Assembly: GCA_965224465.1 (NCBI GenBank)
Contig: OZ245049.1
Location: 3,690,001-3,722,000, forward strand
Origin: Flavobacteriaceae bacterium
GTDB taxonomy: Bacteria; Bacteroidota; Bacteroidia; Flavobacteriales; Flavobacteriaceae
DNA: 32,000 bases
Reading direction: 5' to 3'
The position numbers and the translations under genes are program-made. The stretch's first letter is position 1. The number at the start of each line of letters is the position of its first letter. Below the pieces are notes generated by a model. It worked only from the letters and a program-made list of their open reading frames with translations. It made no database searches and was not told the origin of the DNA. Below are positions 7,779 to 32,000 of the stretch, in pieces.

Positions 7779-9281
7779 TTATTTATCAACAGGCTTCCAA
7801 TTTTGAGGCAGTAACTCCGAAAGTTTATTAGCCTTATGTTCTGGTAATCTATTAAGGACATCACATAGCCACGTATGTGGGTTTACGTTATTCTTTTTGC
7901 AAGTAGCAAAAAAGCTATAAAATAGAGCTATGTTTTGTGCGGACTCATGACTGCCAGCAAAGAGATAATTTTTTCTGCCAATAGCTAAAGGTCTTATGGC
8001 ATTTTCTATATTATTGTTGTCTATTTCAAACCTGCCATCATCGATGTATAGTTTTAGGTTTTGCCATATTTTAAGAGTATAAGCAATTGCTTTTCCTATG
8101 GCACTTTTAGGCAGTACGTTTTTTCGCTCTTTTGTAAGATAAATTTCTATTCCGTCTAAAACAGGTGATGCATGTTTTTCTCTATATGCTTTAGTTTGCT
8201 CAATAGTTAATTCTTGTTCTTTTATTTTACGTTCTATCTTGTATAGCTTTTGAATTTCCAACAAAACAACATCCGCTCTTTTAGGATCATTATCCAGCGC
8301 CTTCTCAAAATACCGCCTAGCATGAGCCATGCAACCTAAAAGAGTAATTTCTCCTTTTGTTGTTAAGTTTTGGTATGCAGCATACCCATCGGACTGTAGT
8401 GTCCCATTGAAATCTTTAAAAAACTCTTCTGGAACAACTTTTCCTCTCCCTTTATTGTATTCAAAAAGAACTAAATTTTTAACAGGATTTCGATACACCC
8501 ACATATACCCTCTGTGTGTTGATTTTTTCTTGTCTTTATCTAAAACCTTTATAGGAGATTCGTCTGCTTGAATATAATTGGCATTTTCTAAAAACTGAGC
8601 CTTAAATGTATCGTATAAAGGAGCGATAAGCTCCGAACTTTTAGATACCCATCCTCCAATTGTTGATTTACTTACTTTTAAATCTTGTCGTTTAAAAATT
8701 TGAATTAATCTGTAAAGTGGTAAATGGTCTACAAATTTTGAAATAAGTATAAAGGCCAATAAACTTGCTGATGCATTTCCTTTAGGTATCGGTAAGCTTG
8801 GTAATTCTGCTATAACAACGCCTTTTTCTTCCGGAAGTGCATATTTAGGTCTTACAATTCGTCTTACAAAAACGGAAAGAGGCGTTATTTCTAAAAGTTC
8901 TGTAACTTCTTCTCCTATTTTTACAGCTCCTTCTTCTATGTGCTTAGGCTCTATAATCTCTTCTACTCGCGGAAAATGCGCAGGTATAGAAGAGCGAACA
9001 GGTTTTTTCTTTCCTTTCTTCTTTTGTTTTCTTTCGTAGATTACAATATGTTTTTTGTATGCCTCTTCTTTCTCAGCTATTATTTTTCCGAAAAGCGACA
9101 ATTGATTTGTGTCAACAGGGATAAAACGTTCGCTTTTAGACCCGAAAACCATTCTTCTAAGCTGCTCGTATTGCTGCTTAATTTCAGCTAGTTCTTGAGC
9201 TGTTTTTTCAAGTTCAATCTTTAAAATTACCAGCTCTTTTTGTATGTCTATTGTATTGTTTTCCACACTATAAATATACAA
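7779..9281 (-). CDS. tnpC: IS66-family transposase TnpC (500 aa)
   Basis: N-terminal coiled coil (LEKTAQELAEIKQQYEQLRRMVFGSKSERF) followed by a DDE-type core. The C-terminal AIGRKNYLFAGSHESAQNIALFYSFFATCKKNNVNP block is typical of IS66 transposases. Confidence 0.9.
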   Translation of the reverse strand: MYIYSVENNTIDIQKELVILKIELEKTAQELAEIKQQYEQLRRMVFGSKSERFIPVDTNQLSLFGKIIAEKEEAYKKHIVIYERKQKKKGKKKPVRSSIPAHFPRVEEIIEPKHIEEGAVKIGEEVTELLEITPLSVFVRRIVRPKYALPEEKGVVIAELPSLPIPKGNASASLLAFILISKFVDHLPLYRLIQIFKRQDLKVSKSTIGGWVSKSSELIAPLYDTFKAQFLENANYIQADESPIKVLDKDKKKSTHRGYMWVYRNPVKNLVLFEYNKGRGKVVPEEFFKDFNGTLQSDGYAAYQNLTTKGEITLLGCMAHARRYFEKALDNDPKRADVVLLEIQKLYKIERKIKEQELTIEQTKAYREKHASPVLDGIEIYLTKERKNVLPKSAIGKAIAYTLKIWQNLKLYIDDGRFEIDNNNIENAIRPLAIGRKNYLFAGSHESAQNIALFYSFFATCKKNNVNPHTWLCDVLNRLPEHKANKLSELLPQNWKPVDK

Positions 9282-9324
9282 AAAACAAGACTAAATAGCA
9301 GGTAAAACCTACAGTTTTATTGAA

Positions 9325-9678
9325 TTATTTAGCCTCTAAATAACGTTCGTTTTTCTGAGTATTTATAATACTAATTCCGTCTAAAACCATAACCATTTGG
9401 GTATAACTCAAAACTACTAATCCATCTTCAATGTCGTATTTTGGAAGCTCAAAAATACCTCGTTCCAATCGTTTATAATACAGTACAAATCCTCCAGGTC
9501 GCCAATGAAGAAGTTTTAGTTTATTTTTTTGCTTATTGATAAATGCATAAACACTATTTCTATCTCGCTCTTGTTCCATGTGCTCACTAACTAATCCACT
9601 TAATCCATTAAATCCTTTTCGCATATCAACTGCAGATAAGTGATAATAATACGTGTGTTCTGTACCTAATCCTAACAT
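9325..9678 (-). CDS. tnpB: IS66 Orf2/TnpB accessory protein (117 aa)
   Basis: Contains VDMRKGFNGLSGLV...LLHWRPGGFVLYYKRLERGIFELP, the characteristic IS66 TnpB pattern. Lies immediately upstream of tnpC on the same strand. Confidence 0.85.
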   Translation of the reverse strand: MLGLGTEHTYYYHLSAVDMRKGFNGLSGLVSEHMEQERDRNSVYAFINKQKNKLKLLHWRPGGFVLYYKRLERGIFELPKYDIEDGLVVLSYTQMVMVLDGISIINTQKNERYLEAK

Positions 9679-9756
9679 TTATATTTTCGTTTTTGTTTAG
9701 ATGCAAAAATTAGATTATTTTTAACTTCTTACAAGATGTAGTTCTCCGTACGCTTA

Positions 9757-10659
9757 CTATTTTACAAAGTAGATATTAAAGCAAATATCCGCATAAAAGT
9801 ACTTGAAATTAAAGGAGATTACGCACAAATAAAAGTAACATCTATTACTGCAACCTTAGTTAGAGATACCGATATTAATGATAACGTAAAACCATTTAAT
9901 AGCAATAAACTTTATACTATCAAAAATCTTACTACGGTTAATAAAATAAAGCATTTAATGGTCTTGCAACTAAAGATGCCACATTCAATACAAAACAAGT
10001 AAAAGCACCAAGAAATTGGAGAACAAATTTAAACAGAACTGTTACCTTTTACCCAAATGGCTATGGTAAAGTGATTTGGATAGAAAAAACATCTATTTCC
10101 AAAATAGCAGAAAAAATAAAAAAAATTAGATATAATTACCTCAATTATTCCTGACTATTTTTTAACAGATAAACAAAAATACGAAACAGTTGAAAGAGAA
10201 GCCAAAACAGGAGAAAAAACTACATTATATGTAGATGTATGTAAGGCATATATCGAAGTCCCTTTTAGAACCGATGTAGAAGAAGTAACTGTAGAAAAAG
10301 AAAAAGTAGTTGACTTACGTAAATTTAAAAAAGCAAAAGACGATAAAAAAGACCTTTGGTATAAAGTAGTATTAGATGATACAACTAGTAGCCAATGTGT
10401 AGCAGTAAAAGGCTGGGTAAAAGAAAAGGATCTTGACAAATTTAGCGCTTACGATTGGCAAAAATTTGGTTTTAAAGATCTAGACGCAGGTAATGAATAC
10501 ATATACTCTGTAAAAGACTTACGTGAGGCAACAGATAGTGCCGATTTTGTAACCGAAATTTGGGATAAAACAATAGATACAGATGGCAATAAAGTATTAG
10601 ATATACTAGAGCTTATTAGAGCGTTTAGTAAACCAGAAATAGCACAAAAACTATCTCGT
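9757..10659 (+). pseudogene. Continuation of the IS-disrupted effector gene, with at least two further frameshifts
   Basis: Collinear with 28335..29229. There is a 5-nt aataa duplication near 9941-9950 (ttaataaaataaagcattt versus ttaataaagcattt). There is a 2-nt shorter, degenerate stretch near 10105-10140. In-frame stops occur at about 9998 and at 10117. Confidence 0.8.
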
Positions 10660-12303
10660 TTGGTATGTAAGCACAAAAATGAATGGTCTTATACTATGGA
10701 CGAAATAAAACCAGAAGTAAAAGAACGCTGTGATTTTGGTATACAATTAGAAGAAGTTACAGCCGAAAAACAAAAACTAGAAACCCAAAGGGATGATAGT
10801 TTAGCCAAAATGGAAGCCAAAATAGAAAATTTAATGTGGTGGGATGAGGCAAGTAAAAAAACCTACACAGCACCCGTAAAAGAAGAAGATAAAACAAAAA
10901 CGAGTAGCACCAAAAGACCTTCTATGTTGCCAGAAGGTACAGTGGTAGAAGAAATACCACAAAAAGTTGTTGTACCTTTAGACAATAAAACAACAGCAGC
11001 TAAACCAGATGCTAAACCAACGGAAGATAGTATACCAACGACAAGTACAACCGCTGCTCCAGCACCAGAAACTAAAGTAGAAGAAAAAGAAGTGCCGCCA
11101 AAACGTATGTTTCCTAAAAGCAATATAGTACATCACTTTCATCCAATTGCTTGGGTGGAGCAGATGAGACTTGTTTTTGGGGATGAGGGTATTTGTGTCT
11201 GTGAAGCTAGAGTTAGGGCTTTTATGACAATGTTACGAATTGGAGAGGGGACTTTAGAAGATATTGGTTATGAAACTATTGTCGGTGGTTCTCACTTTAA
11301 AGATTATGGTAAAAATTTTAGCAACCATCCTGAAATTTACATAGAAAAATATGATTCGACTGCTGCTGGCGCTTATCAAATAACAAAGACGAATTGGAAT
11401 GATATTGCTTTTGTAAAATGGAGAGAAAATAAAAAAGTAATAGATTTCTTTCCAATAAGTCAAGATAAATATTGTTTTTATCTTTTGCAAAAAAAGAGAA
11501 AAGCAATAGATTTAATTAAAAAAGGATATATTAACGAGGCAATATTTAAAGTAAGAAAAGAATGGGCAAGTTTACCTGGTTCTGGTCATGGACAAAGAGA
11601 AGAAAAATTATCAATTGTAATCAATAAATATATTGAATTTTATAAGAATGAGTTAAAAGGAATTACACAATTAAAAATTCCTTATGGTGGATTTGAAAAG
11701 TTTGGGTTTGATTGTAATTGTCAAAATAATAATGAAACTGATACTACTTGTGGCAAAACACATATTGATGTCACAAATTTAATGATTTTTTATGACCAAG
11801 GAAGTGGAAATTCTAATTGTAATAAAACATGTAAATCCATAATGCTCCAAATGCAGGTTATTGCAGAAGGAGCAACTACAAAAGCCAAGATTAGACCAAA
11901 TCTTCCAGGTTCTTATTATCAAATTGCTGAAGAAAATTTAACAAGAGATGGGTTTGCTTTTGATGAACAAAAAAGTATAGAAGGAATCTCTTATTTAGAT
12001 AAAGCATTAGAACATGGAGACCCAATACTTTTTGGTGTAAATCATACATATAAATATCGTAAATTCGGAACAATCAATGATGACTCAACTGACCATTATG
12101 TGATAGTTACTGGTAGAAAATGTTTAGATGGAAAAACTATTTATACCTATTGGGATGTTGGTACTAAATATGGCGGAAAAGGAGACTATTATTTTACATT
12201 AGAGAATAATAAATTAACATCATCTTCGAGATCAAAAAAATATACAGTAACACAAATTAGAAGAAATTTAAACTTAAATGGAAAAATTATTCAATATAAT
12301 TAA
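10660..12303 (+). CDS. C-terminal toxin portion of the disrupted effector: Pro/Thr/Lys linker, FHPIAWVEQMR junction, lambda-lysozyme/GH104-like lytic domain, and an uncharacterised Cys/His C-terminal domain
   Basis: MLRIGEGT..GYETIVGG....HP......STAAGAYQI....W......FFPISQDKYCFYLL......I..G.I..AI......WASLPGSGHGQ resembles lambda-type lysozyme / lytic transglycosylase families. The frame is open from 10120, but the first start-like codon is TTG at 10660 and the next is ATG at 10696. Expression is therefore doubtful. Confidence 0.55.
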   Translation: MVCKHKNEWSYTMDEIKPEVKERCDFGIQLEEVTAEKQKLETQRDDSLAKMEAKIENLMWWDEASKKTYTAPVKEEDKTKTSSTKRPSMLPEGTVVEEIPQKVVVPLDNKTTAAKPDAKPTEDSIPTTSTTAAPAPETKVEEKEVPPKRMFPKSNIVHHFHPIAWVEQMRLVFGDEGICVCEARVRAFMTMLRIGEGTLEDIGYETIVGGSHFKDYGKNFSNHPEIYIEKYDSTAAGAYQITKTNWNDIAFVKWRENKKVIDFFPISQDKYCFYLLQKKRKAIDLIKKGYINEAIFKVRKEWASLPGSGHGQREEKLSIVINKYIEFYKNELKGITQLKIPYGGFEKFGFDCNCQNNNETDTTCGKTHIDVTNLMIFYDQGSGNSNCNKTCKSIMLQMQVIAEGATTKAKIRPNLPGSYYQIAEENLTRDGFAFDEQKSIEGISYLDKALEHGDPILFGVNHTYKYRKFGTINDDSTDHYVIVTGRKCLDGKTIYTYWDVGTKYGGKGDYYFTLENNKLTSSSRSKKYTVTQIRRNLNLNGKIIQYN

Positions 12304-13183
12304 AATTTTGATTCTAGTCGTAATGCTAGTTTCTTGTAAAAAACATATTTCAGGCTTAATAGTAGAAAATAAGCAGAATATTACATCATATAATGATTTA
12401 ATAGGTAAAACATTTTTTGCCCTACAAAATGAAGAAGGACAATTGGTTTATGATAGTTATGGTGTTAATGATATGACAGAAATGATACGTTTTAGACAAA
12501 CGAAAATCAACCATTTCAAACCAATGGATTGGCATAATTATGATATAATTAATCATGTTTCAAAAAAAACAATACAAATTAAAATAAAATATGAGAACAA
12601 ATCAGTAGATGAAGGTTTAAAATATTTTCTAAAATATGACAAAGAAAAACATCTTCTATACTCTTATCCAAGTGATAAGTGTAAAAACCCAAAAACATAT
12701 GTTGACAGTATATACCTAAACACAATTAGGTATAAAAAATATCCTAAAGTAAGTGATATTAATGTAGAAGATAATGTTATAAATAAAAAAATTAAAATTA
12801 ACATTGAATCTAAGGAAATAGAAATTTTAATTCCTTTTTTAGAAGAATATATTTATCATGAAGACAATATCGCAGGTAGACAAGGAATTTCAGAAACTTT
12901 AGAAGTAAAACTGTTAAAGGGCACTAATGGTAATTTATACTTTGTTTTTGGAGAGGGTAAATGTGGAGCCTGTCCTAATTTCTCAGCTCTTTATGATTTT
13001 AAAGGTAAAAACCTATCATATCAATATTCTATTAGACAGAATGTGAGAGGGTCAAAAATAATAATTTCAAAGGGTAATGATAGTGAAGTATTTAAGAAAT
13101 ATGGATTGTCAGAGAGTAATATAAACATTCAAATAAATAATCAAGACACACCTACTTATTTAATAAAAAATTGGTTTAATTAA
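12278..13183 (+). CDS. Lipoprotein (301 aa), candidate cognate immunity protein
   Basis: Signal peptide with lipobox: MEKLFNIIKILILVVMLVSC. Overlaps the toxin ORF end by 26 nt. No similarity to the other two lipoproteins in equivalent positions. Confidence 0.5.
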   Translation: MEKLFNIIKILILVVMLVSCKKHISGLIVENKQNITSYNDLIGKTFFALQNEEGQLVYDSYGVNDMTEMIRFRQTKINHFKPMDWHNYDIINHVSKKTIQIKIKYENKSVDEGLKYFLKYDKEKHLLYSYPSDKCKNPKTYVDSIYLNTIRYKKYPKVSDINVEDNVINKKIKINIESKEIEILIPFLEEYIYHEDNIAGRQGISETLEVKLLKGTNGNLYFVFGEGKCGACPNFSALYDFKGKNLSYQYSIRQNVRGSKIIISKGNDSEVFKKYGLSESNINIQINNQDTPTYLIKNWFN

Positions 13184-13196: not shown

Positions 13197-14663
13197 ATGG
13201 GCGCACCAACCGCTGCTCCAACACCAGAAACTAAAGTAGAAGAAAAAGAAGTACCACCAAAACGTATGTTTTCTAAAAGCAATATAGTACACCGCTTTCA
13301 TCCTATTGCTTGGGTGGAGCAGATGCGGAGGGTTTTTGGAACTGGTAATTGTTCACAATGCGAAAAAGATTTCACCTATGAACAAATTAAGGCTATCTTT
13401 CCTGCTGCTGCAAAAAATGAAACTTTAGCTAAACAACTTATTGATGAACTGAATTTAGTACGTGAAAAACACAAAATAAATACTTGTCAGAAAAAAGCAC
13501 ACCTTATTACACAATTTGGTTCCGAAACTGGATTTAATACATTGATTGAGGATTTGGCTGGATATAGTGTATCTGCACTTAAAAAATTCAGTTACTTTGC
13601 AAGAAATCCAAATGAAGCAAAGTTATATCTAGGTAATACCAAAGAAATTGCAATGCGGGCATATGGTCTTCGTAGCGTGGATAAAGAAAAAGATATAGTT
13701 ACTTGTGTTGGATTGTCTAAAACAGAAAAAAAACTAAAAAAATGCAATGATTTAGGTAATAAAACTATGTTGGATGGTTATAGCTATATGGGCAGAGGTT
13801 TAATACAATTAACTGGAAGGTATAATTATGAAAATATAAATAAGAAATTTCAAAAGGCATTTCCAGATGAAGGAGATTTATTAGCAAACCCTCAACTTTT
13901 AGAACAGCCAAAGTATGCTGTAATGTCTGCTATGAGTTATTGGATAAATAAAAACTTAAACAAACTAGCAGATGAAGGAGGTTATAGTCAAGTTAATAAA
14001 ATAACTGGTATTATAAACAAAGGTTTAAGTAAAGGACATTATGCTAAACGAAGAAATTCGTTTGTAGAGGCTTTTTATGCATTTAATCTAAGTACATGTA
14101 AACTCCAAAACTCACAAACAAACTCTGATTTAAAAATAAAAGAAGGTTTAGCTTGGGCAGAAAGTATAGCAATTACAGAAACACAACTAAAAGCAAACCC
14201 TAAAACACCATATATTATAAATTATAATCAGGAATCTGGAAAGGAAGGACATTTAAGAACAGAACAAACCGAAAAAGGAATTGCTAAAATGGACTGTTCC
14301 GAATTGGTATGCAGGTATTTACAGAAAATTGAATGGAGTGAGAATGTAGAGTATATAACATCTAATGGACTTGTTGACTACGCAGCACAACATCCTGATA
14401 AACTTATAGTAAATAATGGTAATCCAAAAGTTGGAGATATATTTGCTTGGAGAGGTCATACTGGTATTATTAAAAGTTATGACTCATCAACAAAAAAGAT
14501 TGTAACTATAGAATCCATTAGAGAAAAATCGTACTCTTGGCATGAAGGCATCTTTTTTAAAGGTGTAGTTATTTGGACGTATACTAAAGATCTAAATCAT
14601 TTAAAAAGTAAAAAAGGAAAAAAAGTACATTACTACACTCCAATAAATCATTATTCAAAATAA
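13197..14663 (+). CDS. Orphan effector module: shared linker and junction motif, then a GH19-like muramidase/chitinase domain and an NlpC/P60-like cysteine peptidase domain (488 aa)
   Basis: Homology to the 905-aa effector starts at TAAPTPETKVEEKEVPPKRMF..NIVHRFHPIAWVEQMRRVFG and then diverges. GH19-like blocks: ITQFGSETGFN, GRGLIQLTGRYNYENI, AVMSAMSYWINKN. NlpC/P60-like blocks: MDCSELVCRYL ... GDIFAWRGHTGII. Has its own ATG start. Confidence 0.7.
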   Translation: MGAPTAAPTPETKVEEKEVPPKRMFSKSNIVHRFHPIAWVEQMRRVFGTGNCSQCEKDFTYEQIKAIFPAAAKNETLAKQLIDELNLVREKHKINTCQKKAHLITQFGSETGFNTLIEDLAGYSVSALKKFSYFARNPNEAKLYLGNTKEIAMRAYGLRSVDKEKDIVTCVGLSKTEKKLKKCNDLGNKTMLDGYSYMGRGLIQLTGRYNYENINKKFQKAFPDEGDLLANPQLLEQPKYAVMSAMSYWINKNLNKLADEGGYSQVNKITGIINKGLSKGHYAKRRNSFVEAFYAFNLSTCKLQNSQTNSDLKIKEGLAWAESIAITETQLKANPKTPYIINYNQESGKEGHLRTEQTEKGIAKMDCSELVCRYLQKIEWSENVEYITSNGLVDYAAQHPDKLIVNNGNPKVGDIFAWRGHTGIIKSYDSSTKKIVTIESIREKSYSWHEGIFFKGVVIWTYTKDLNHLKSKKGKKVHYYTPINHYSK

Positions 14664-14665: not shown

Positions 14666-15709
14666 ATGAAGCATCTATCAATTATAATTTTAACTATTTT
14701 CTGTTTATTTTCTTGTAAAAACAAAAAAAATGAAACAGTAGTAGTTATACAAAATAACCAATCAAAACATCAAAATATTATTGATTATATTAATAATAAA
14801 TCTGTTACTGAGTTTTATAAATTTGATGAAGATTATTTTATAAATAATACTCTTGAAGGTATTTGTAATGACACTACAAACACCATAGGGATATTTAGTA
14901 TTATCTATTATGACAACGAAAAAGACATTACTCAACTGTACAAAGAAAAAACACCAGTAAAACAACAGCAAAAATTATTTGACTCTTATAAAAAGGTTGC
15001 CTTTTTTATTGATAAAAAATATCTAGAAAAATTGCCGCATCATCATGAAGAAGGCATGGCAGTAGGCACAATATATGACCCTATTAATCCATATATAGCA
15101 CAAATGTTTATCTGGCAAGATGATGACTGGATATTTAATAAAGATATTAAAATTACAGATTATAAAGATTATGTTAGGTTAATAAGTTATTTGAGACCTA
15201 TAAATTTGTCAAAAAGAAAGAAAGAATATGAACTTAAAGATATTGTTGTTATTGAAGAACTAAGAGGATATTATAATAATGATAACATAGAGGATCTAAT
15301 TTGGGTGTTAGATATTAGTACTGATAATTCTATGGGAGGACGAGCAAAAAAAGAATATAGATTACAAGTGTTTTTAGGTGCCAAAATAAAAAATAAATAC
15401 AACTTTTTATTTACATCTGATTTAATAATACCTTGTAATTATTGTGAAAACTGGAAAAATGATTCTGAATATTCATATTATAATTTAAAATTTGAAAATC
15501 AAATTTTTAGTTTTTTTACAAAATCAACATTGGATAAAATAGGAACTAGCAATAAATTTACTTTTAAATATAAAGATGATAAAATGTTGCTTAACAATAT
15601 AGAAAAAGAAACCGTTCATTATAGCGAAAATGATAGAGTAGAAAAAGAGACAATAACAAACTTAAAACAAGTAAGTTTAGAATGTTTTAATGTTTATGAC
15701 GAATGGTAA
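14666..15709 (+). CDS. Lipoprotein (347 aa), candidate cognate immunity protein
   Basis: MKHLSIIILTIFCLFSCKNKKN lipobox. Starts 3 nt after the toxin stop. Confidence 0.5.
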   Translation: MKHLSIIILTIFCLFSCKNKKNETVVVIQNNQSKHQNIIDYINNKSVTEFYKFDEDYFINNTLEGICNDTTNTIGIFSIIYYDNEKDITQLYKEKTPVKQQQKLFDSYKKVAFFIDKKYLEKLPHHHEEGMAVGTIYDPINPYIAQMFIWQDDDWIFNKDIKITDYKDYVRLISYLRPINLSKRKKEYELKDIVVIEELRGYYNNDNIEDLIWVLDISTDNSMGGRAKKEYRLQVFLGAKIKNKYNFLFTSDLIIPCNYCENWKNDSEYSYYNLKFENQIFSFFTKSTLDKIGTSNKFTFKYKDDKMLLNNIEKETVHYSENDRVEKETITNLKQVSLECFNVYDEW

Positions 15710-15716: not shown

Positions 15717-16027
15717 TGTAAATTTAAAAAAGCAAAAGACGATAAAAAAGACCTTTGGTATAAAGTAGTATTAGATGATACAACTAGTAGCCAATGTGTA
15801 GCAGTAAAAGGCTGGGTAAAAGAAAAGGATCTTGACAAATTTAGCGCTTACGATTGGCAAAAATTTGGTTTTAAAGATCTAGACGCAGGTAATGAATACA
15901 TATACTCTGTAAAAGACTTACGTGAGGCAACAGATAGTGCCGCTTTTGTAACCGAAATTTGGGATAAAACAATAGATACAGATGGCAATAAAGTATTAGA
16001 TATACTAGAGCTTATTAGAGCCTTTAG
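15717..16027 (+). pseudogene. Internal fragment of the hydrolase-effector N-terminal region (KFKKAKDDKKDLWYKVV...ELIRAF), truncated by an IS66 remnant
   Basis: Near-identical to 10318-10628 and 28887-29197. The listed ORF 15690..16070 is a chimera that borrows an ATG inside the preceding gene and a stop inside the IS end. Confidence 0.8.
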
Positions 16028-16065: not shown

Positions 16066-16097
16066 CATAAAAAAACCTCGATTTATTGATCGAGGTT
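16066..16097 (-). terminator. Intrinsic terminator of the remnant tnpC
   Basis: aacctcgat (16074-16082) pairs with atcgaggtt (16089-16097). On the minus strand the stem is followed by a T-run, the complement of aaaaaaa at 16067-16073. Confidence 0.55.
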
Positions 16098-16604
16098 TAA
16101 ATTTTGTGGAAATAGCTCACTTAATTTTTGAGCATTGTAATCAGGGATTATATCCAGTATTTTTTTCATCCATTTATAGGGGTTTACTTGGTGTTTTTTA
16201 CAAGTCCCAAAAAAGGAATAGAACATCGCTGCATTTTTTGCAGCATCATGGCTACCTGCAAATAAATAATTTTTACGTCCAATAGCTAATGTTCTGATAG
16301 ATCCTTCTACTAGGTTATTATCTAGTTCTAAAGTACCGTCATACAGGTAGGCTTTTAAGTAGTCCCATCGTTTTAATGTATAAGTAATTGCTTTTCCTAG
16401 TGGACTTTTCGGTAAGCTTCCTTGGGTATTATGGATCAACCATTTTATAAATGTATCCATTATTGGTTGTGCTTTATCTAGGCGATAAGCATGCCGTTGC
16501 TCAGGAGTAAATTCCTGGTTTTTACAATGTCGTTCTATCCAAATTGGAGGTAATGATAGAGCTGGTGCTACCTTTACTTCTGCCAATATTACAAGAGTAA
16601 CCAT
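16083..16604 (-). pseudogene. tnpC: Truncated IS66 transposase TnpC (C-terminal 150 aa only)
   Basis: LPKSPLGKAITYTLKRWDYLKAYLYDGTLELDNNLVEGSIRTLAIGRKNYLFAGSHDAAKNAAMFYSFFGTCKKHQVNP aligns with the C-terminus of the 500-aa TnpC at 7779..9281, at roughly half identity. No DDE core is present upstream. Confidence 0.8.
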
Positions 16605-20943: not shown

Positions 20944-21339
20944 ATGTCGTTTTTATCACAATTAACAATAGCCGATGATACCATGAATGTATTGCGATGT
21001 TCTTTTAATTTTGAACAAGGTGCAGATGCTGCTGGTAAACCATCACAAAGACCAAGTGGAGGGAAACTTATAATTTTAATAGAATCTACTAGTAAAACAG
21101 ATTTTTTAGAATGGATGATCTCTCCCAATATGACCAAAAACGGAGAGGTTGTTTTTTATAAAAGAGATAATATGTCTAGTTTAAAAACCATTACTTTTAA
21201 AAATGCCTATTGTTTGAGCTATCAAGAAGATTTTGATGCAGAAGGAAACCAACCTTTAAAAACACGGATTGTTGTGTCTGCAAAAGAAATTAAAGTAAAG
21301 AATACTACCTTTTCCAATAACTGGTTTGATAGAGAATAA
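20944..21339 (+). CDS. hcp: Hcp/TssD-like T6SS tube protein, second paralog (131 aa)
   Basis: About 95% identical to 503..898 and in the same context. Confidence 0.85.
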   Translation: MSFLSQLTIADDTMNVLRCSFNFEQGADAAGKPSQRPSGGKLIILIESTSKTDFLEWMISPNMTKNGEVVFYKRDNMSSLKTITFKNAYCLSYQEDFDAEGNQPLKTRIVVSAKEIKVKNTTFSNNWFDRE

Positions 21340-21424
21340 AAAAGTAGAAGCATCCCTGATGCAATCAATTAAAATGAATTTATTATTGTAATTTTTTTTA
21401 GAGAACACTATTAATTTAGAAAAT

Positions 21425-23239
21425 ATGGCGCTACAAAGCAACACAACTATAATTATTAAGAGACAAGAATTTTCAAGTTTTCAAAGCCTTAACTTACATC
21501 AGGAAATTGATGCATCCCATTTGTTAACACTTACGTTTAGAATGGACACACTTGAAGATCTAGAAGAAGAACTTGCAACCAACAGTAAGGAGTTTTTGGG
21601 GGAAACAATTTCCTTGCAAACGATTCCTGCAAATGGTTTTGAAGACCGTTATGGCGAATTGACGTTTAAAGGTATTATTACCGAAATAAAAATCATAAAA
21701 GGGCATGAGGTAAGTGATGGTGATAAAGTAGTTATAGTGGCAAAAAGCCCCGATTTTTTAACAAATGATGGTCCGCATTTTGCGTCTTACAACGATGTTT
21801 CCCTCTCAGAAATTATTGATAGTTCGTTTGAAGGCTATGATACTTCAAAATTAGAAGTAGACATACGCCCTCAAAACAACCCTAGTTTGCATTATTCGGT
21901 ACAGCATAACGAAAGTGCTTTTACGTATGTAAGTAGACTTGCAGCACAATACGGAGAGTGGTTCTATTACGATGGAGCGAAATTAGTGTTTGGAATGCCT
22001 GGTACCGAAGACTTAGAACTCACCTATGGATTTGATTTAGTAGAGTATCAGATACGTTTGATACCTCAATCCAACAATTACAAAATATTTGCAAATGATT
22101 ATTTAACCGATGAGGTACAAGAAAAATCAACAAGCGAAACCAATGCCGGTTTAAGAGGTTTTGGAGGCTTTGTTTCTGAAAAATCAAATGCCATCTACAG
22201 AAAAGAAACAAAAATTTGGCACAATTTATACAGCAATACAGAAGTGCAACAGCGTTTAGATACAGCGGTGGAATTGCAGAAAAAAGCGATTGATGTAAAA
22301 CAAGTAAAAGTACAGGGTGTTTGTGATAATCCAGGAGTAAAAATTGGGAGCGTAGTTGTAATAGAAGGCAATAGATACAGAATTATAGAGGTTACACATA
22401 GCAATAATGAAATTGGCGATTATACAAATAAATTTGAAGGAATTACCGCAGATATAAACGCATATCCATACACCAACATAAACGCATTTCCAAAAAGCGA
22501 AACACAGGTAGCTACCGTAAAAGAAAATGCAGATCCCGATGGATTGGGGCGCATAAGAGTGCAATTTCCATGGCAAGTGGAGTATAGCGAGTTAACCCCA
22601 TGGGTGCGCATTGTAACACCACATGGAGGAGCAAATAAAGGATTCCATTTTATACCAGAAATTGACGAAGAGGTATTGGTGGGCTTTGAAGGGGGGAATG
22701 CAGAACATCCTTATATATTGGGTGTTTTATATACGGGAAATGCCAAACCCGAAGCGTTTAAAACCGACACCAACGATGTTAAAATTATAAGAACCCGCAG
22801 CGGACACACCATTGAACTAAATGATAAAGATGGTGAAGAAAAAATAAATATCTACGATAACGAAGGAAGTATCATCACTTTTGATACCCAAGCAAAATCC
22901 TTGTATATACAAGCTACGGAGAATATTGAATTCCAAGCAAAGAATATTAAATTAAAAGCGAGCGAGAATATAGAACTAAACGCCGATCAAGAAATTAAAA
23001 TAGCAGCAACGGGTAACGCATTATTAGCATCAGAGGCAGTTATTAACATACAAGCAGAAAGTGATGTTAACGTAAGTGCGAGTTCGAATATAACCATAGA
23101 AGCCAGTAGTAAAGCGAATTTTAAAGGACAAAGTATTATTGTAGAAGGGCAAACATCAGCTGAATTTAATAGTGCCCAAACCAAAATTACGGGTAGTGGA
23201 ATGATTGATGTTTCAGGAGGAATGATAAAAATAAATTAA
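21425..23239 (+). CDS. vgrG: VgrG/TssI T6SS spike protein (604 aa)
   Basis: Same length as 1145..2959, and collinear with it at a constant offset of 20280. Substitutions are scattered over roughly the first 420 residues. The last about 170 codons are identical at the nucleotide level. Confidence 0.92.
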   Translation: MALQSNTTIIIKRQEFSSFQSLNLHQEIDASHLLTLTFRMDTLEDLEEELATNSKEFLGETISLQTIPANGFEDRYGELTFKGIITEIKIIKGHEVSDGDKVVIVAKSPDFLTNDGPHFASYNDVSLSEIIDSSFEGYDTSKLEVDIRPQNNPSLHYSVQHNESAFTYVSRLAAQYGEWFYYDGAKLVFGMPGTEDLELTYGFDLVEYQIRLIPQSNNYKIFANDYLTDEVQEKSTSETNAGLRGFGGFVSEKSNAIYRKETKIWHNLYSNTEVQQRLDTAVELQKKAIDVKQVKVQGVCDNPGVKIGSVVVIEGNRYRIIEVTHSNNEIGDYTNKFEGITADINAYPYTNINAFPKSETQVATVKENADPDGLGRIRVQFPWQVEYSELTPWVRIVTPHGGANKGFHFIPEIDEEVLVGFEGGNAEHPYILGVLYTGNAKPEAFKTDTNDVKIIRTRSGHTIELNDKDGEEKINIYDNEGSIITFDTQAKSLYIQATENIEFQAKNIKLKASENIELNADQEIKIAATGNALLASEAVINIQAESDVNVSASSNITIEASSKANFKGQSIIVEGQTSAEFNSAQTKITGSGMIDVSGGMIKIN

Positions 23240-23255
23240 AACAAATAAATAAATT

Positions 23256-23969
23256 ATGCCAGGACCAGCAGCAACAATATCACACATGCACACATGCCCT
23301 ATGTATAGTGGAACAAGCCCACATACTGGCGGCCCCATTATAGGCCCGGGAGTGCCAACAGTTTTAATAGGAGGAAAACCTGCCGCAGTAATGGGGGATC
23401 AATGTACCTGTTCGGGACCACCCGATGTAATTGTAGAAGGTGTTTCTACCGTATTAATTGGTGGGAGACCCGCAGCTACTATGGGATCAAAAACAGGTCA
23501 TGGAGGCGAAGTAAGCATTGGAAATACTACCGTACTTATTGGTACAAGATGTAGTGCTCCTACCGCAATAATGCCAGTAAGCAAAATACCTTTTCCTAAA
23601 ATATCTTTTAAAGATCGTATACTAACTTCTTTGTCGGGGAATTCATTGGCAGAAGCAGAAGCGAATCAAGCTGCTTTGAGAGAAGAAGAGGAAGGTGAGC
23701 CTGAAATATATGGTGTACAGTGGATTATAGGAGAACAAACAGTAAGAGAATCTCATGTGTTTTCTGAAGTAACTGTAAGGGCTAGGGTAAGAAATATTAA
23801 TGATGGTGAAAAAATTACTTTTTCTATTAAAAAACCTCTTAGCACAACGGATAATAATGGAGTTAGTACTACTTCCGAAGAAGATATTATTGAGTTATCA
23901 GGTACAGTACAAGACAAAATAGTAGAGGTAACTTGGGAAATTGAAAAATCACAGGAAGAATCTAAATAA
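23256..23969 (+). CDS. PAAR-domain spike-tip protein with an alternative C-terminal extension (237 aa)
   Basis: Residues 1-149 are nearly identical to 2976..3668. After EEEEGEP the tail differs (EIYGVQWIIGEQTVRESHVFSEVTVRARVRNINDGEKITFSI...). Confidence 0.9.
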   Translation: MPGPAATISHMHTCPMYSGTSPHTGGPIIGPGVPTVLIGGKPAAVMGDQCTCSGPPDVIVEGVSTVLIGGRPAATMGSKTGHGGEVSIGNTTVLIGTRCSAPTAIMPVSKIPFPKISFKDRILTSLSGNSLAEAEANQAALREEEEGEPEIYGVQWIIGEQTVRESHVFSEVTVRARVRNINDGEKITFSIKKPLSTTDNNGVSTTSEEDIIELSGTVQDKIVEVTWEIEKSQEESK

Positions 23970-28173: not shown

Positions 28174-30891
28174 GTGTCTGCTAGGAATGTTTTGCGGAAA
28201 GGTTTACGGAAAAAGGTGATTTATGTATCATTAGAAAATACAGATGATGTTTTTGAGTTTTTAAGTAATGAAAAAGAAGAACAATATTTTACAAATATTA
28301 TAGCAGGGACAAAATTAAAAACAAGCCTATCTTACAAAGTAGATATTAAAGCAAATACACCCATAAAAGTACTTAAAATTAAAGGAGATTATGCACAAAT
28401 AAAAGTAACATCTATTACTGCAACCTTAGTTAGAGATACCGATATTAATGATAACGTAAAACCATTTAATAGCAATAAACTTTATACTATCAAAAATCTT
28501 ACTACGGTTAATAAAGCATTTAATGGTCTTGCAACTAAAGATGCCACATTCAATACAAAACAAGTAAAAGCACCAAGAAATTGGAGAACAAATTTAAACA
28601 GAACTGTTACCTTTTACCCAAATGGCTATGGTAAAGTGTTTTGGGTAGAAAAAACATTTATTTCCAAAATAACAGAAAAAACCAAAAAAAAAGCAGGTAT
28701 ATTTGTCTCAATTACTCCTGACTATTTTTTAACAGAAGAACAAAAATACGATACAGTTGAAAGAGAAGCCAAAACAGGAGAAAAAACTACATTATATGTA
28801 GATGTATGTAAGGCATATATCGAAGTCCCTTTTAGAACCGATGTAGAAGAAGTAACTGTAGAAAAAGAAAAAGTAGTTGACTTACGTAAATTTAAAAAAG
28901 CAAAAGACGATAAAAAAGACCTTTGGTATAAAGTAGTATTAGATGATACAACTAGTAGCCAATGTGTAGCAGTAAAAGGCTGGGTAAAAGAAAAGGATCT
29001 TGACAAATTTAGCGCTTACGATTGGCAAAAATTTGGTTTTAAAGATCTAGACGCAGGTAATGAATACATATACTCTGTAAAAGACTTACGTGAGGCAACA
29101 GATAGTGCCGCTTTTGTAACCGAAATTTGGGATAAAACAATAGATACAGATGGCAATAAAGTATTAGATATACTAGAGCTTATTAGAGCCTTTAGTAAAC
29201 CAGAAATAGCACAAAAACTATCTCGTTTGGTATGTAAGCACAAAAATGAATGGTCTTATACTATGGACGAGATAAAACCAGAAGTAAAAGAACTCTATGA
29301 TTTTGGTATACAATTAGAAGAAGTTACAGCCGAAAAACAAAAACTAGAAACCGAAAGGGATGATAGTTTAGCCAAAATGGAAACCAAAATAGAAAATTTA
29401 ATGTGGTGGGATGAGGCAAGTAAAAAAACCTACACAGCACCCATAAAAGAAGAAGATAAAACAAAAACGAGTAGCACCAAAAGACCTTCTATGTTGCCAG
29501 AAGGTACAGTGGTAGAAGAAAAACCACAAAAAGATGTTGTACCTTTAAACGATAAAACAACAGCAGTTAAACCAGATGCTAAACCAACGGAAGATAGTAT
29601 ACCAACGACAAGTACAACCGCTGCTCCAGTACCAGAAACTAAAGTAGAAGAAAAAGAAGTACCGCCAAAACGTATGTTTCCAAGTACAGATATAGTACAT
29701 CACTTTCATCCAATTGCTTGGGTGGAGCAGATGAGGTTGGTATTTGGGGAAGGTGGTGAAATTTCTGAAATCTGTTATGCAGAAGCAAGAGTTAAGGCAT
29801 TTATGAGAATGTTGCGTATTGGGGAAGGATCTGTTGGTGAAAAAGGTTATTATACTTCTTATGGAGGTCGAACGATGACTAATTTAAGTACTCGTCAAGA
29901 AACTGTATATGAGGGCTCTAGTGCTTCAGGAGGGTGCCAATTTATAAATAAAACTTATTGGGGAATGCAAGGGTTTACAGTTGTGAAAAATAAAAAAGTA
30001 GGAGACGCTGATCCTAAAAAAGACCTTATAACAAGATATAAAATACCAGATTACGAACCATTATCTCAAGATAAGTTGTGTATTATCTATATGAAACATT
30101 ACGGAAAAGGGCTAATAGAGTTACTTGCTGAAGGGCAAATAGAAAAAGCTATTAGAACAAAAGCGAGTAAAATTTGGGCTAGTTTACCTAATGAAGGTAT
30201 ACCTTTCGAACATAAAAAAAGTAGATACCTAATGCCAGATGGTCTTAGGTATCAACCAGCAGAACATATGAGTGATAGCTGTTTGATGAATTACCGTAAG
30301 TTTTATAGAGAAGAAGTAAAAGGCATAACTGACTTATATTTACAACCAGGTTTTTTAAAAGAGTTTGGTTTTAATTGTTGTAAAGATGATGATACTTTAT
30401 CTAATAATGAGGGTGGGTGGCCTGTTAGGAAATCTCATAATGGTCATAAAAGAAGATTTGGAAGTCCTTTTGGACCTAGAAATGGAGGTCAACATCGTGG
30501 AATTGATATGAATTTTGGTTCTGGATATGATGATTATGGTGCGCCTGTAATAGCTACACATGATGGCGTTGTGAGAAAAGCACAAGAAAATGATGATAAA
30601 ACTGAAGGAGCAGGAAGAAGAGTAACGATACAGTCTGAAGATGGGACTTTTCAAACAAAATATTTTCATTTAAGTGTTTTTTTAGTAGATATAGGAGATA
30701 AAGTAAAAAAGGGACAAATTATTGGTGAAATAGGCTCTTCTGCTTTTGCTAAAGAAAATGGAACTGATTGTCACTTGCATTATGAAATACATAAAAAAAA
30801 TTCAGCAGGAAAAATGGAGCATTATAATCCTACCGAAGGGAAAGCTAACACAGGAGAAAACATAGTAGATCCACAAACTTGGATTAAATAA
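28174..30891 (+). CDS. Intact polymorphic cell-wall-hydrolase effector (905 aa): SH3b-like/EF-hand-like N-terminal region, Pro/Thr/Lys linker, FHPIAWVEQMR junction, GH104/lambda-lysozyme-like domain, M23 metallopeptidase domain
   Basis: The GH104-like block is MLRIGEGSVGEKGYYTSYGG...SSASGGCQF...PLSQDKLCIIYM...WASLPNEG. M23 motifs are HRGIDMNF (HxxxD), ...ATHDGVV..., GQIIGEIGSS and CHLHYEIH (HxH). There is no ATG in the first 364 codons. Start candidates are GTG 28174, TTG 28192 and GTG 28213. Confidence 0.8.
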   Translation: MSARNVLRKGLRKKVIYVSLENTDDVFEFLSNEKEEQYFTNIIAGTKLKTSLSYKVDIKANTPIKVLKIKGDYAQIKVTSITATLVRDTDINDNVKPFNSNKLYTIKNLTTVNKAFNGLATKDATFNTKQVKAPRNWRTNLNRTVTFYPNGYGKVFWVEKTFISKITEKTKKKAGIFVSITPDYFLTEEQKYDTVEREAKTGEKTTLYVDVCKAYIEVPFRTDVEEVTVEKEKVVDLRKFKKAKDDKKDLWYKVVLDDTTSSQCVAVKGWVKEKDLDKFSAYDWQKFGFKDLDAGNEYIYSVKDLREATDSAAFVTEIWDKTIDTDGNKVLDILELIRAFSKPEIAQKLSRLVCKHKNEWSYTMDEIKPEVKELYDFGIQLEEVTAEKQKLETERDDSLAKMETKIENLMWWDEASKKTYTAPIKEEDKTKTSSTKRPSMLPEGTVVEEKPQKDVVPLNDKTTAVKPDAKPTEDSIPTTSTTAAPVPETKVEEKEVPPKRMFPSTDIVHHFHPIAWVEQMRLVFGEGGEISEICYAEARVKAFMRMLRIGEGSVGEKGYYTSYGGRTMTNLSTRQETVYEGSSASGGCQFINKTYWGMQGFTVVKNKKVGDADPKKDLITRYKIPDYEPLSQDKLCIIYMKHYGKGLIELLAEGQIEKAIRTKASKIWASLPNEGIPFEHKKSRYLMPDGLRYQPAEHMSDSCLMNYRKFYREEVKGITDLYLQPGFLKEFGFNCCKDDDTLSNNEGGWPVRKSHNGHKRRFGSPFGPRNGGQHRGIDMNFGSGYDDYGAPVIATHDGVVRKAQENDDKTEGAGRRVTIQSEDGTFQTKYFHLSVFLVDIGDKVKKGQIIGEIGSSAFAKENGTDCHLHYEIHKKNSAGKMEHYNPTEGKANTGENIVDPQTWIK

Positions 30892-30920: not shown

Positions 30921-31847
30921 ATGTCTATTTTTATAAATCGAACTATTATAATTTGCACAATTATATGTTTATTTTCTTGTAAAATTAATGAGAAAGAAAA
31001 AAATGAAGGTGTCAAAATTCAATCAGATTTACAAACATCTTCTAAAGTTACTTCAGAAAAAAAAACTAATACAGAATTTGTAACATACCTGTATTCAAAG
31101 AGAAAGTCGGATGGGGAAGGTGAAGAACACACAATGCAAGAATTAAAAATACAATGGAATGATAGTCTTAATATAAAATTTAAGATAGTCATGAAAAACC
31201 TGATGTGTGAAATGAAAGATAAAGGAGAAGCTTCACTAATAGGAAAAAACACTTATCAAGTAAAAAATAATTCAGTTATAAAACAATTAAAATTTGATAA
31301 TAATAAGAATGAAGTAGAGTTAGTTTGTAGCTATGGTAAGTATCAAGGTGAATGTGATCCTATGCAGCAATTGTTAATGACAACAACTTCTTTTACTGGT
31401 AAAAGTGAGTTGAGAAAAGATTTTTTGGAAAAGGAAGAAGCTATTACATATGAAACTATTTATGAGCTTAAAAAGAGGAAGTTTTCAACAGATTGTTCAA
31501 GTGATGATTATGTTTTCTTTTTAGTTGCTGGACAGTTTATAACAAAAAATATTTTTTTTAATTCACGACTTAAAAAAATTAATGAGACAGAGTATTATAT
31601 TTATTTTTCGCCACCATTATTAGCCCCTGTACCAAGTAGTTTAAATGATGCCGCTTCTTTTTCTTTGAGTAAACCAATAGGTAAGATTGTTAATAATACA
31701 GAAGGTCAAATACAGTTTGAATGGTATGGTTTTTATAATAGAAAAACAAAAAAAAGAGAGTTTAAGCAAAACCCTTTTACAAATAAAATAGAGAATGGTT
31801 CTATTGTTTTAAAATGGTGTGATATAGGTAATGTCGATGGTTTTTAA
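30921..31847 (+). CDS. Lipoprotein (308 aa), candidate cognate immunity protein
   Basis: MSIFINRTIIICTIICLFSCKINEKE lipobox. Immediately downstream of the hydrolase effector. Confidence 0.5.
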   Translation: MSIFINRTIIICTIICLFSCKINEKEKNEGVKIQSDLQTSSKVTSEKKTNTEFVTYLYSKRKSDGEGEEHTMQELKIQWNDSLNIKFKIVMKNLMCEMKDKGEASLIGKNTYQVKNNSVIKQLKFDNNKNEVELVCSYGKYQGECDPMQQLLMTTTSFTGKSELRKDFLEKEEAITYETIYELKKRKFSTDCSSDDYVFFLVAGQFITKNIFFNSRLKKINETEYYIYFSPPLLAPVPSSLNDAASFSLSKPIGKIVNNTEGQIQFEWYGFYNRKTKKREFKQNPFTNKIENGSIVLKWCDIGNVDGF

Positions 31848-31933: not shown

Positions 31934-32000
31934 CAGAAATAGCACAAAAACTATCTCGTTTGGTATGTAAGCACAAAAATGAATGGTCTTATACTATGGA
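31934..32000 (+). pseudogene. Start of a further orphan effector module (continues beyond the window)
   Basis: cagaaatagcacaaaaactatctcgtttggtatgtaagcacaaaaatgaatggtcttatactatgga is essentially identical to 29204-29270 (PEIAQKLSRLVCKHKNEWSYTMD). No upstream N-terminal region is present. Confidence 0.75.

Follow-up and report, generated by a model that had tools for sequence, protein, structure and literature searches.

Three open reading frames in a 32,000-nucleotide stretch of a Flavobacteriaceae genome (hereafter the window; contig OZ245049.1 of assembly GCA_965224465.1, positions 3,690,001 to 3,722,000) share a short block that ends in the motif FHPIAWVEQM and precedes three different tails. 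We wondered if this block marks a junction at which toxin domains are exchanged, and if so, to which secretion system the junction belongs.

A scan of the window with the back-translated FHPIAWVEQM pattern gave three sites and no more: 11137, 13296 and 29704. The presence of FHPIAWVEQMR.VFG in three ORFs, asserted in the preliminary description, is thereby established; its positions 29704 and 11137 are exact, while the third, given as 13294, is two bases off. The pattern was not found in any of 100 dinucleotide-preserving shuffles (0 matches expected by chance), which rules out a chance repeat. In each case the motif closes a shared block of 133 nt (11048-11180, 13207-13339 and 29615-29747) with 87-91% identity between copies and BLAST E-values of 5e-48 and 6e-41. 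Further on, similarity collapses as originally described, with the DNA alignment stopping no more than a few codons from the motif. For the two long copies, A and B, nucleotide identity drops from about 97% to about 55% past the motif; calculated in 60-nt windows, it amounts to 0.93-1.00 up to 29650, 0.68 at 29711 and 0.57 at 29741, and it is down to 0.32-0.35 by about 29860-29920. The motif sites and the genes or gene pieces related to them are as follows (WHIX is dealt with below):

29692..29745, + strand: junction motif of copy B (IVHHFHPIAWVEQMRLVF); pattern match at 29704, conservation island in 95 relatives, strand and helix in the AF2 model
11137..11181, + strand: junction motif of copy A; pattern match and alignment
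13296..13340, + strand: junction motif of the short orphan cassette; pattern match and alignment
28174..30891, + strand: copy B, a 905-aa N-terminally truncated WHIX-type effector; Pfam M23, lambda lysozyme (weak), alignment to paralog P0019, structure model
7589..7750, + strand: 5' piece of copy A, ahead of the inserted IS66 element; 7545-7750 versus 28130-28335 at 96%, running into the IS end GTAAGCGTACGG
7751..9756, - strand: IS66-family element interrupting copy A; transposase 7779..9281, TnpB-like gene 9325..9678
9757..12303, + strand: 3' piece of copy A; 9757-11277 versus 28327-29856 at 94%, offsets 18570, 18565 and 18567
13197..14663, + strand: orphan cassette; homology to B from 13207; of the part before the junction only about 45 codons are kept, and the tail is GH19-like plus CHAP
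15718..16027, + strand: effector mid-module fragment, identical to 28886-29195 and followed by an IS66 remnant
16083..16604, - strand: the IS66 remnant after the mid-module fragment
31934..32000, + strand: beginning of another 5'-truncated cassette that follows B's immunity gene, identical to 29201-29267 and running off the window

Copy B consists of a mid-module (SH3-like, EF-hand and helical hairpin parts), a disordered linker, the motif, a GH104-like domain and an M23 tail, in this order. It is 96% identical to the 1047-aa paralog P0019 over residues 14-526, which correspond to 328-844 in P0019. Copy A (7589-7750 plus 9757-12303) is a full-size paralog that is split by the IS66 element, with an 8-bp target duplication TATTTTAC, and frameshifted twice. 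According to three-frame translation both frameshifts lie at about 9945-10125, and the frame then stays open past the motif and on into a tail made of GH104-like and Peptidase C39-like domains; ORF 10660..12303 is the last part of this piece and not a free-standing gene. The starts of both A and B lie immediately behind the H.EVFT strand; the two are devoid of region 1 with its WHxxxH, and B lacks the start of region 2 as well. Located directly after another effector's immunity gene, these two region-1-less copies are candidates for an autonomous unit that is considered below. At 13197 and 31934 there are only short 5'-truncated orphans, each following an immunity gene. There is no canonical effector copy in the window: every tail there is carried by a spare or degraded copy.

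To place the junction in a wider context, relatives were collected by HMMER search of 1.84 billion representative sequences. Out of the 132 retrieved, 95 carry the motif (113 when the window genome's own paralogs are counted). The junction profile was constructed from about 95 cluster representatives, all of them distant relatives (30-40% identical). In these relatives the motif forms a sharply bounded island of 16 residues, VYHFHPIAFVEQMKRI, with per-column identity of 66-100% in a 13-residue core and about 41-54% in the last three positions; on both sides of the island identity is 10-25%. The first tail domains after this island are of at least 20 unrelated kinds, nearly all of them peptidoglycan hydrolases. 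Pfam domains found in the tails include M23, GH24 phage lysozyme, GH19, CHAP, C39-like, PG_binding_1, DUF5675, YkuD, GH108, Pesticin, M15_3 and Ntox44, and several of the 20 tail types have no Pfam match. The initial proposal, that the motif behaves as a demarcation of polymorphic toxins with a sharp drop of conservation and with diverse tails in homologs, is thus borne out by the bounded island, by tail diversity and by 5'-truncated cassettes that keep only the stretch just upstream of the junction. Since the motif precedes 20 unrelated domains, the possibility that it is a piece of a catalytic toxin domain is ruled out. A motif-only profile (padded query) run against a set of 5.8 billion proteins retrieved six short fragments, some of them from Olleya.

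The same description had taken the motif for the mark of an unrecognised system. This does not hold: WHIX effectors of the T6SS have already been described as a class (Fridman et al., PLoS Biol 2025; PMC12135965, cited throughout for the sections consulted), and the family is part of it. The family consensus, derived from 50 aligned whole proteins, contains N.WHGGIH.EG and H.EVFT, and WHxxxH is present in the full-length relatives P0019 and P0012 from the same genome and P0014 from a closely related assembly. Over region 1, hhalign aligns the family with the Vibrio alginolyticus WHIX effector at 99.5% probability and E 2e-22. The family profile matches WP_019466345.1, a protein from Table 1 of the WHIX paper, at E 1e-25 (PMC12135965). 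Two relatives of B, P0025 (WP_140592829.1; E 2e-44) and P0046 (WP_102995690.1; E 4e-28), are themselves leaves of the WHIX tree in Fig 1B of that paper. The combination of peptidoglycan-targeting tails (M23, GH104-like, GH19-like, CHAP and C39-like) with a downstream signal-peptide gene, a feature of WHIX effectors, is found here too. Judged by these sequence matches, the effector family makes up the branch of WHIX-domain T6SS effectors found in Bacteroidota.

Published limits of WHIX region 2 are residues 271-476 of the V. alginolyticus effector (PMC12135965). Residue 476 is the F of WHYWPF, and the next residues are CFCNRD, the same start as in GH19 tails studied here. In WP_019466345.1, a trimmed profile places the motif on EGFPESPAVYHIHPVALVGNF, collinearly with three upstream blocks. 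The published C-terminal limit of WHIX therefore appears to coincide with the motif. Because the hhalign comparison of the mid-module profile with the single V. alginolyticus sequence (region 2) is not significant (E 0.029, motif misplaced), this correspondence is drawn from collinearity and intermediate sequences.

Further, we examined the tails in the window and the genes downstream of them. Copy B was originally assigned a GH104 plus M23 tail; the M23 part is clear (Pfam Peptidase_M23, 68.6 bits), and the match to lambda lysozyme (1am7) is weak, with E 1.6e-3. Similarly, the GH19 plus NlpC/P60-like tail of ORF 13197 corresponds to two weak Pfam matches, CHAP (24.6 bits) and GH19 (22.2 bits). 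The supposedly unknown Cys/His domain of ORF 10660 is in fact Peptidase C39-like (profile E 1e-59; solved structures 9JDD and 9JG8); a literature search with these two PDB codes gave irrelevant matches only. A nested swap point had also been suggested inside the GH104-like tails at (E/K)(K/E)FGF(D/N)C. Toxin domains do shuffle independently, as C39-like domains occur after GH104-like domains, after SLT-like domains or directly after the motif. However, the string itself is nothing more than the terminus of the GH104-like domain, and with a local DNA identity of only about 55-60% between A and B, no recent recombination tract is apparent at this site. Each tail is accompanied by its own unrelated lipoprotein gene, as had been observed:

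12278..13183, + strand: predicted lipoprotein immunity gene for A's tail; lipobox MLVSC
14666..15709, + strand: predicted lipoprotein immunity gene for the orphan tail; lipobox CLFSC
30921..31847, + strand: predicted lipoprotein immunity gene for B's tail; signal peptide, lipobox CLFSC

Likeness between the products of these three ORFs is limited to the signal peptide, which is of lipoprotein type and ends in a Ser-Cys lipobox (VSC or FSC).

Genes of the type VI secretion system lie in the same window, in two islands:

20944..23969, + strand: T6SS genes of island 2, encoding TssD (Hcp), VgrG and a PAAR protein; Pfam TssD, Phage_base_V/Phage_GPD and PAAR_motif

A paralogous TssD/VgrG/PAAR set is located at 503-3668, and the window contains VasX_N (Pfam) as well. 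In two loci of relatives (L001 and L002) the order is vgrG, PAAR, effector, immunity, and in a third (L007) it is PAAR, effector, immunity, with no vgrG in the stretch read. A further relative (L004) is encoded in a T6SS cluster of Bacteroidota that is complete and includes TssN, TssO and TssR. In this core cluster a 334-aa protein, P0110, is encoded after a separate region-1-plus-toxin gene and is another candidate for the autonomous unit. Locus L007 continues from the main gene and its immunity gene to an orphan starting MFPSTN..HFHPIAW, a second immunity gene and IS66 genes, which are homologous to those of the window element and contain Pfam IS66 domains. The orphan-cassette layout is seen in the window too: the arm at 13207-13339 is followed by a tail and an immunity gene, and the piece from 31934 onwards follows B's immunity gene. 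At least 12 paralogs with different tails are present on the 5.24-Mb contig, and at least 17 motif-bearing ORFs on what is apparently one 5.24-Mb genome. Several tails recur in different settings. The tail of full-length P0014 in the other assembly is 100% identical to that of orphan P0015 in the window's genome; likewise, the tail of B is 99% identical to that of orphan P0006, and the tail of P0018 is 99% identical to that of orphan P0004. Such identical or 99% identical tails in main and orphan positions suggest that tails are exchanged between orphan and main genes.

In AF2 models, the motif consists of a strand and a helix both in B (model of residues 225-545, pLDDT 78-86) and in full-length P0019 (pLDDT 80-96). 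The linker ahead of it is modelled as disordered (pLDDT 35-47), and its length across the family varies from 17 to 108 residues. Considering pLDDT and DSSP assignments, the motif probably folds back and docks onto the WHIX body. Its strong conservation could reflect more than folding, for instance processing or partner binding. A Foldseek search of the PDB with both models gave nothing at E <= 0.001 and local SH3 similarity only; sequence and profile searches of PDB chains with the N-terminal region gave only weak EF-hand matches.

In our opinion it is highly probable that the window genes are copies of WHIX-class T6SS cargo effectors in a genome of a marine type of Flavobacteriaceae, that the motif is the edge of the loading domain and that tails are swapped as cassettes. 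The canonical gene order would be vgrG, PAAR, effector, immunity. The effector would begin with the WHIX domain, composed of an M23-like region 1 with WHxxxH, SH3 inserts and a region 2 with EF-hand and helical hairpin. This would be followed by a disordered linker and the 16-residue strand-helix element, right after which one to three peptidoglycan-degrading toxin domains would start; a periplasmic lipoprotein encoded downstream would neutralise them. Loading would occur through WHIX on VgrG, at its C-terminal tail, a step taken from PMC12135965, in which WHIX-dependent T6SS secretion and loading on this tail are reported for Aeromonas and Vibrio proteins only. The motif would be the structural border at which the conserved loading domain ends on its C-terminal side, and this would be the reason why conservation stops and all tails start there. 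Homologous recombination in the conserved 3' end of the WHIX-coding region, between the full-length gene and 5'-truncated spare copies, would exchange tails together with immunity genes. A variant of this scheme, which we regard as rather unlikely, is that the mid-module and the tethered strand-helix constitute an autonomous unit in Bacteroidota that works without region 1, for example when loaded in trans, with the motif as a latch and more than a plain domain border. If so, docking and release across the linker of 17-108 residues would couple tails to the loading domain or uncouple them from it.

Could the three copies be a mere by-product of recent duplication of two T6SS cargo islands, the junction having no further meaning? 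The islands are indeed large recent duplicates (94-95% identity; 1111-3550 versus 21391-23830 at 95%, besides the 94% between copies A and B), and IS66 copies flank several breakpoints. The same boundary is nevertheless found in about 95 distant relatives with about 20 tails, and the orphan at 13207 has just the 133-nt block ending at the motif in common. We hold this explanation to be extremely improbable, and the family-wide conservation profile rules out a pure duplication artefact. Another idea is that the motif is a new pre-toxin demarcation like VENN or PxxxxDPxGL, unrelated to described domains and defining a new polymorphic toxin class. It does act as a demarcation, no Pfam or NCBIfam model covers the N-terminal 530 residues of B, literature search with motif strings returned irrelevant matches only, and Foldseek found no solved structure resembling the module. 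Membership in the published WHIX tree, the profile match to the Table 1 protein, the published WHIX limit that appears to fall on the motif (all PMC12135965) and the alignment of region 1 with the Vibrio effector nonetheless make this idea very unlikely.

It is also conceivable that conservation of the motif reflects chemistry, the motif being a processing or recognition site at which autocatalytic or partner-protease cleavage frees the tails in the target periplasm, similar to the DPxGL site of Rhs proteins. Pre-toxin domains have been suggested to be processing sites (PMC3482391), and the motif brings two near-invariant histidines and an invariant proline (H-F-H-P) exactly to the toxin boundary, at the end of a flexible linker of very variable length. 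On the other hand, it is unlike any peptidase motif, and the models show it as packed secondary structure of an ordinary kind. Its histidines are not kept in proteobacterial WHIX effectors, which have WHFSPI (Aeromonas) and WHYWPF (Vibrio) instead, and cleavage is not mentioned in the consulted sections of PMC12135965. We thus consider such processing very unlikely.

The favoured reading, cargo effectors bounded by the WHIX edge, can be compared with other systems in which toxins are swapped. In CdiA (VENN) and Rhs (PxxxxDPxGL) proteins, a delivery part is separated by a sharp junction from a variable C-terminal toxin with cognate immunity, and orphan cassettes are located downstream. Auxiliary T6SS clusters of Vibrio cholerae likewise contain arrays of displaced effector and immunity genes. 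The family seems to share with these systems 5'-truncated cassettes whose short homology arm ends at the junction, as well as tails occurring in both main and orphan positions. Unlike CdiA and Rhs, its delivery domain would be WHIX and not a filamentous haemagglutinin repeat or Rhs shell, the motif is different, and the toxins are predicted to act on the cell wall rather than in the cytoplasm. VENN, PxxxxDPxGL and FHA or Rhs repeats are absent from the window ORFs by sequence and Pfam searches, so the likeness is functional only. MIX, FIX and RIX markers resemble WHIX in that a conserved secretion-associated domain is fused to diverse C-terminal toxins and is usable as an effector marker; they bear no sequence relationship to it, are N-terminal and are known mainly from Proteobacteria. 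FIX is associated with targets in the cytoplasm, WHIX with peptidoglycan (PMC12135965).

With described WHIX effectors the family has in common the bipartite loading domain with WHxxxH in region 1 (as a family feature), vgrG/PAAR neighbours and downstream immunity proteins with signal peptides. Published C-terminal extensions, namely chitinase-like, pesticin, lambda-lysozyme-like, NlpC/P60 and lytic transglycosylase domains, nearly all target peptidoglycan, and Flavobacteriaceae members of the family are already among the leaves of the published tree (PMC12135965). The consulted sections of that paper contain no mention of Bacteroidota, of a C-terminal motif as junction or of 5'-truncated toxin/immunity arrays. 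In contrast to described members, the Bacteroidota motif comprises 16 residues versus about 6 and is set apart from the rest of WHIX by a disordered linker that can reach about 100 residues, tails of the family often have two or three catalytic domains, and the two long copies in the window lack region 1.

In this form the finding leaves the current picture of T6SS unchanged; it extends the 2025 description of WHIX to another phylum and adds a layer of orphan cassettes. The pattern [VW][YWH]H[FL]HP[IV][AG]F.E.M would serve as a sequence handle for the exact WHIX cargo junction in Bacteroidota, and thereby as a way to harvest new cell-wall toxins and their immunity genes. For engineering of WHIX as a secretion chassis, the motif would mark the natural fusion point of cargo. 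As for the biology of these bacteria, WHIX effectors, like CdiA and Rhs, would hold libraries of silent toxin/immunity cassettes.

Two paralogous cargo islands, belonging to a T6SS of the Bacteroidota type, lie in the window, with Pfam matches to TssD (PF17642), VgrG, PAAR and VasX_N effectors. Features connected with the junction motif FHPIAWVEQMR.VFG are as follows.

28174..30891: copy B, 905 aa, GH104-like domain followed by M23 domain
7545-7750 and 9757-11277: homology of copy A to copy B, exceeding ORF 10660 alone
7751-9756: IS66 element inside copy A, with ends GTAAGCGTACGG and CCGTACGCTTAC and the 8-bp target duplication TATTTTAC on both sides
13197..14663: short orphan cassette, sharing with the other copies only the last ~45 codons before the junction
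15718-16027: effector fragment identical to 28886-29195, next to an IS66 remnant
16083-16604: this remnant, a truncated IS66 transposase directly after the fragment
31934 onwards: further cassette running out of the window, identical to 29201-29267

The back-translated pattern FHPIAWVEQM occurs at exactly three sites in the window (11137, 13296 and 29704) and at none in 100 shuffles of it. Each site terminates a 133-nt block (11048-11180, 13207-13339, 29615-29747) with 87-91% identity among copies, and likeness in DNA alignments stops a few codons past the motif. Between copies A and B, nucleotide identity in 60-nt windows is 0.93-1.00 until 29650, 0.57 at 29741 and 0.32-0.35 by ~29860-29920. 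The segment shared by three ORFs and its sudden end, reported in the preliminary description, are thereby confirmed; two of its motif coordinates are exact and the third, 13294, lies two bases off the correct start. Each tail is indeed followed by its own lipoprotein ORF, the three having nothing but signal peptides in common.

Copy A carries two frameshifts downstream of the IS66 element. Frameshifts recur at an A-rich stretch encoding KI(K/T)KK (window ~9945-10125; B residues ~165-175, ~28670-28700): besides copy A, two paralog pairs from this genome (P0012/P0002 and P0017/P0001) are broken at this point, a pattern that sequencing error, decay or phase variation could explain. Upstream of the first tssD, a 111-nt unit occurs as a tandem duplicate (1-174 and 112-285); the paralogous island has it once (20605-20778). 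The window also contains a second polymorphic set (3788-7485, 17096-19543, 23981-28115) of VasX_N-type effectors: a 950-aa protein, and another divided between reading frames into parts of 400 and 708 aa. Its orphan comprises a C-terminal part with immunity gene (17849-19668 matches 26421-28240 at 96%), and the only similarity among its membrane immunity proteins is a C-terminal block, WYMDKNRPLPPG..F..YRE.D..RRK..GFP.

We wondered how far the junction extends beyond the window. A word-indexed search retrieved 12 relatives, none outside a single 5.24-Mb contig; since two of them (P0008, P0013) are identical to window ORFs, they appear to be paralogs from the window's own genome. At least six tail architectures follow FHPIAWVEQM[RK] in these paralogs.

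Tail architectures among the 12 paralogs
1: GH104-like + M23
2: GH104-like + Cys/His domain
3: SLT-like 'ALETGG' domain + Cys/His domain
4: GH19-like + CHAP
5: PG_binding_1 + M15-like domain + T4-type lysozyme
6: variant of architecture 5

The Cys/His domain, previously described as unknown, was identified in copy A (11700-12300) as Peptidase C39-like, a domain of known structure (9JDD, 9JG8/9JG9; profile E 1e-59). Its position in relatives is after the GH104-like domain, after the SLT-like domain or directly after the motif. The 617-aa PDB protein containing this domain gave no match to the WHIX family profile.

When 1.84 billion representatives were scanned exhaustively by HMMER with B residues 1-530, 132 relatives (24-42% identity) were obtained, nearly all with the motif. 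Relatives that bear a name belong to Aquimarina, Tenacibaculum maritimum, Tamlana and Pseudotamlana, Olleya, Fulvivirga and Mangrovibacterium. When 95 of them were anchored on the motif, a 16-residue island, V-Y-H-F-H-P-I-A-F-V-E-Q-M-K-R-I, emerged. Per-column conservation is 66-100% across the 13 residues of its core, with invariant proline, against 10-25% on both flanks; this is the sharp drop that had been anticipated. Grouped by first domain, the 103 tails that reach 100 residues form 20 clusters unrelated to one another. Pfam matches include M23, GH24, GH19, CHAP, PG_binding_1, DUF5675, YkuD, GH108 with PG_binding_3, Pesticin, M15_3 and Ntox44, and several clusters had no Pfam match. Because the island is conserved and followed by such unrelated domains, the motif is a true family-wide junction, and its earlier comparison with polymorphic-toxin demarcations is apt. 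That the motif is a piece of a toxin domain is ruled out by the same 20 clusters. Most tails have one or two cysteines 3-12 residues from the motif (GDC, GEC.C, GIC.C, GNC..C, EIC; in the window at 29749-29790, 11182-11200 and 13341-13360), as has a Vibrio WHIX effector (KCFC); disulfides formed in the target periplasm may be the reason.

The preliminary description did not recognise the motif; the family belongs to the described WHIX class. Full-length relatives (P0014, 1264 aa; P0019, 1047 aa; an ORF of 1221 aa at locus L001) possess ~330 N-terminal residues absent from A and B, with the consensus N.WHGGIH.EG ... YSN.FVLIQH ... FYSLY.HL ... KAG..IGY.G ... H.EVFT, that is, a WHxxxH signature within an M23-like frame (one member has a weak Pfam M23 match). 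In the paper that defines it (Fridman et al., PLoS Biol 2025; PMC12135965), WHIX is a bipartite domain for T6SS secretion that owes its name to WHxxxH, its C-terminal extensions are almost exclusively peptidoglycan-targeting, and its genes adjoin vgrG and PAAR, with signal-peptide immunity genes downstream. Our family alignment matches region 1 of the V. alginolyticus effector (S1 File of PMC12135965) with hhalign probability 99.5% (E 2e-22). The profile also retrieves proteobacterial proteins, including WP_019466345.1 of Dyella japonica (E 1e-25), a WHIX effector with lytic-transglycosylase tail in Table 1 of that paper. Two relatives which B matches directly, WP_140592829.1 of Aquimarina algicola (E 2e-44) and WP_102995690.1 of Pseudotamlana (E 4e-28), are leaves on its WHIX tree.

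Region 2 is given there as residues 271-476 of the Vibrio protein, which reads ...FIVKHPTDWH...ELERADKFSWMQ...KSLWHYWPF(476)VGNHTQSKCFCNRD... and is collinear with LVCKHKNEWSY ... NLMWWDE ... IVHHFHPIAW ... of B. Past WHYWPF follows CFCNRD, identical to the start of GH19-type tails here. With the profile of mid-module (SH3-like, EF-hand and helical hairpin) and motif, EGFPESPAVYHIHPVALVGNF of WP_019466345.1 aligned to the motif, three upstream blocks being in the same order. When the mid-module was compared directly with the single Vibrio sequence, no significant match resulted, so the correspondence of WHYWPF to the motif that we infer rests on collinearity and intermediates. We conclude from these alignments that the motif likely is a longer, Bacteroidota version of the C-terminal edge of WHIX.

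An AF2 model of B residues 225-545 (alignment of 50 sequences) comprises, in order, SH3-like sheet, EF-hand helices, the LVCKHK strand, a long helical hairpin, a disordered linker (pLDDT <50), and a strand (IVHHF) with helix (PIAWVEQMRLVF) at pLDDT 78-86. For full-length P0019, the modelled motif element reaches 80-96 and the linker 35-47. Linker length is 17-108 residues in 47 relatives and 17 in Vibrio. The strand-helix element is thus predicted to dock back on the WHIX body, a place beside the LVCKH strand being the simplest option. No homolog of known structure was retrieved by Foldseek.

Copies A and B begin directly after the immunity gene of another effector, with a common 5' junction (7545-7750 matches 28130-28335). 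A third copy of this junction between VasX-type immunity gene and truncated WHIX effector lies at 19558-19668 (region 19558-19901; 92% to 7545-7655) and opens a 99-aa ORF before diverging. Both A and B are devoid of region 1 and of the first strand-rich part of region 2. Since the two regions, according to the WHIX paper, together form a cavity proposed to cap the VgrG tail (PMC12135965), A and B are probably displaced remnants serving as large spare cassettes. At locus L004 (7638-11813, within a core Bacteroidota T6SS cluster), WHIX parts are divided between two genes, each with its own small ORF next: a 616-aa protein with region 1, H.EVF strand and SLT-like toxin, and the 334-aa P0110 with mid-module, motif and M15_3 toxin. 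It is therefore possible that the mid-module can work alone, without region 1.

Loci L001 (a Flavobacteriaceae MAG) and L002 show the order vgrG-PAAR-effector-immunity, and the L004 cluster is complete, with TssN, TssO and TssR. Locus L007 consists of PAAR, full-length effector, immunity gene, orphan starting MFPSTN..HFHPIAW, second immunity gene and IS66, the last flanking the orphan array. The tail of the full-length L007 effector is 100% identical to that of P0015, an orphan of the window's genome, and 99% tail identity links B with orphan P0006 and P0018 with orphan P0004. Arms upstream of the tails are 79-98% identical regardless of tail type. CdiA and Rhs loci are known for cassette exchange. 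Their signature, identical tails in main and orphan settings behind common arms, is matched here, suggesting that toxin cassettes are exchanged between full-length and orphan copies.

The WHIX class to which the motif belongs was thus already known; new here are an explicit junction motif for its Bacteroidota branch, the predicted strand-helix nature of this motif behind a variable linker, and the arrays of orphan cassettes.
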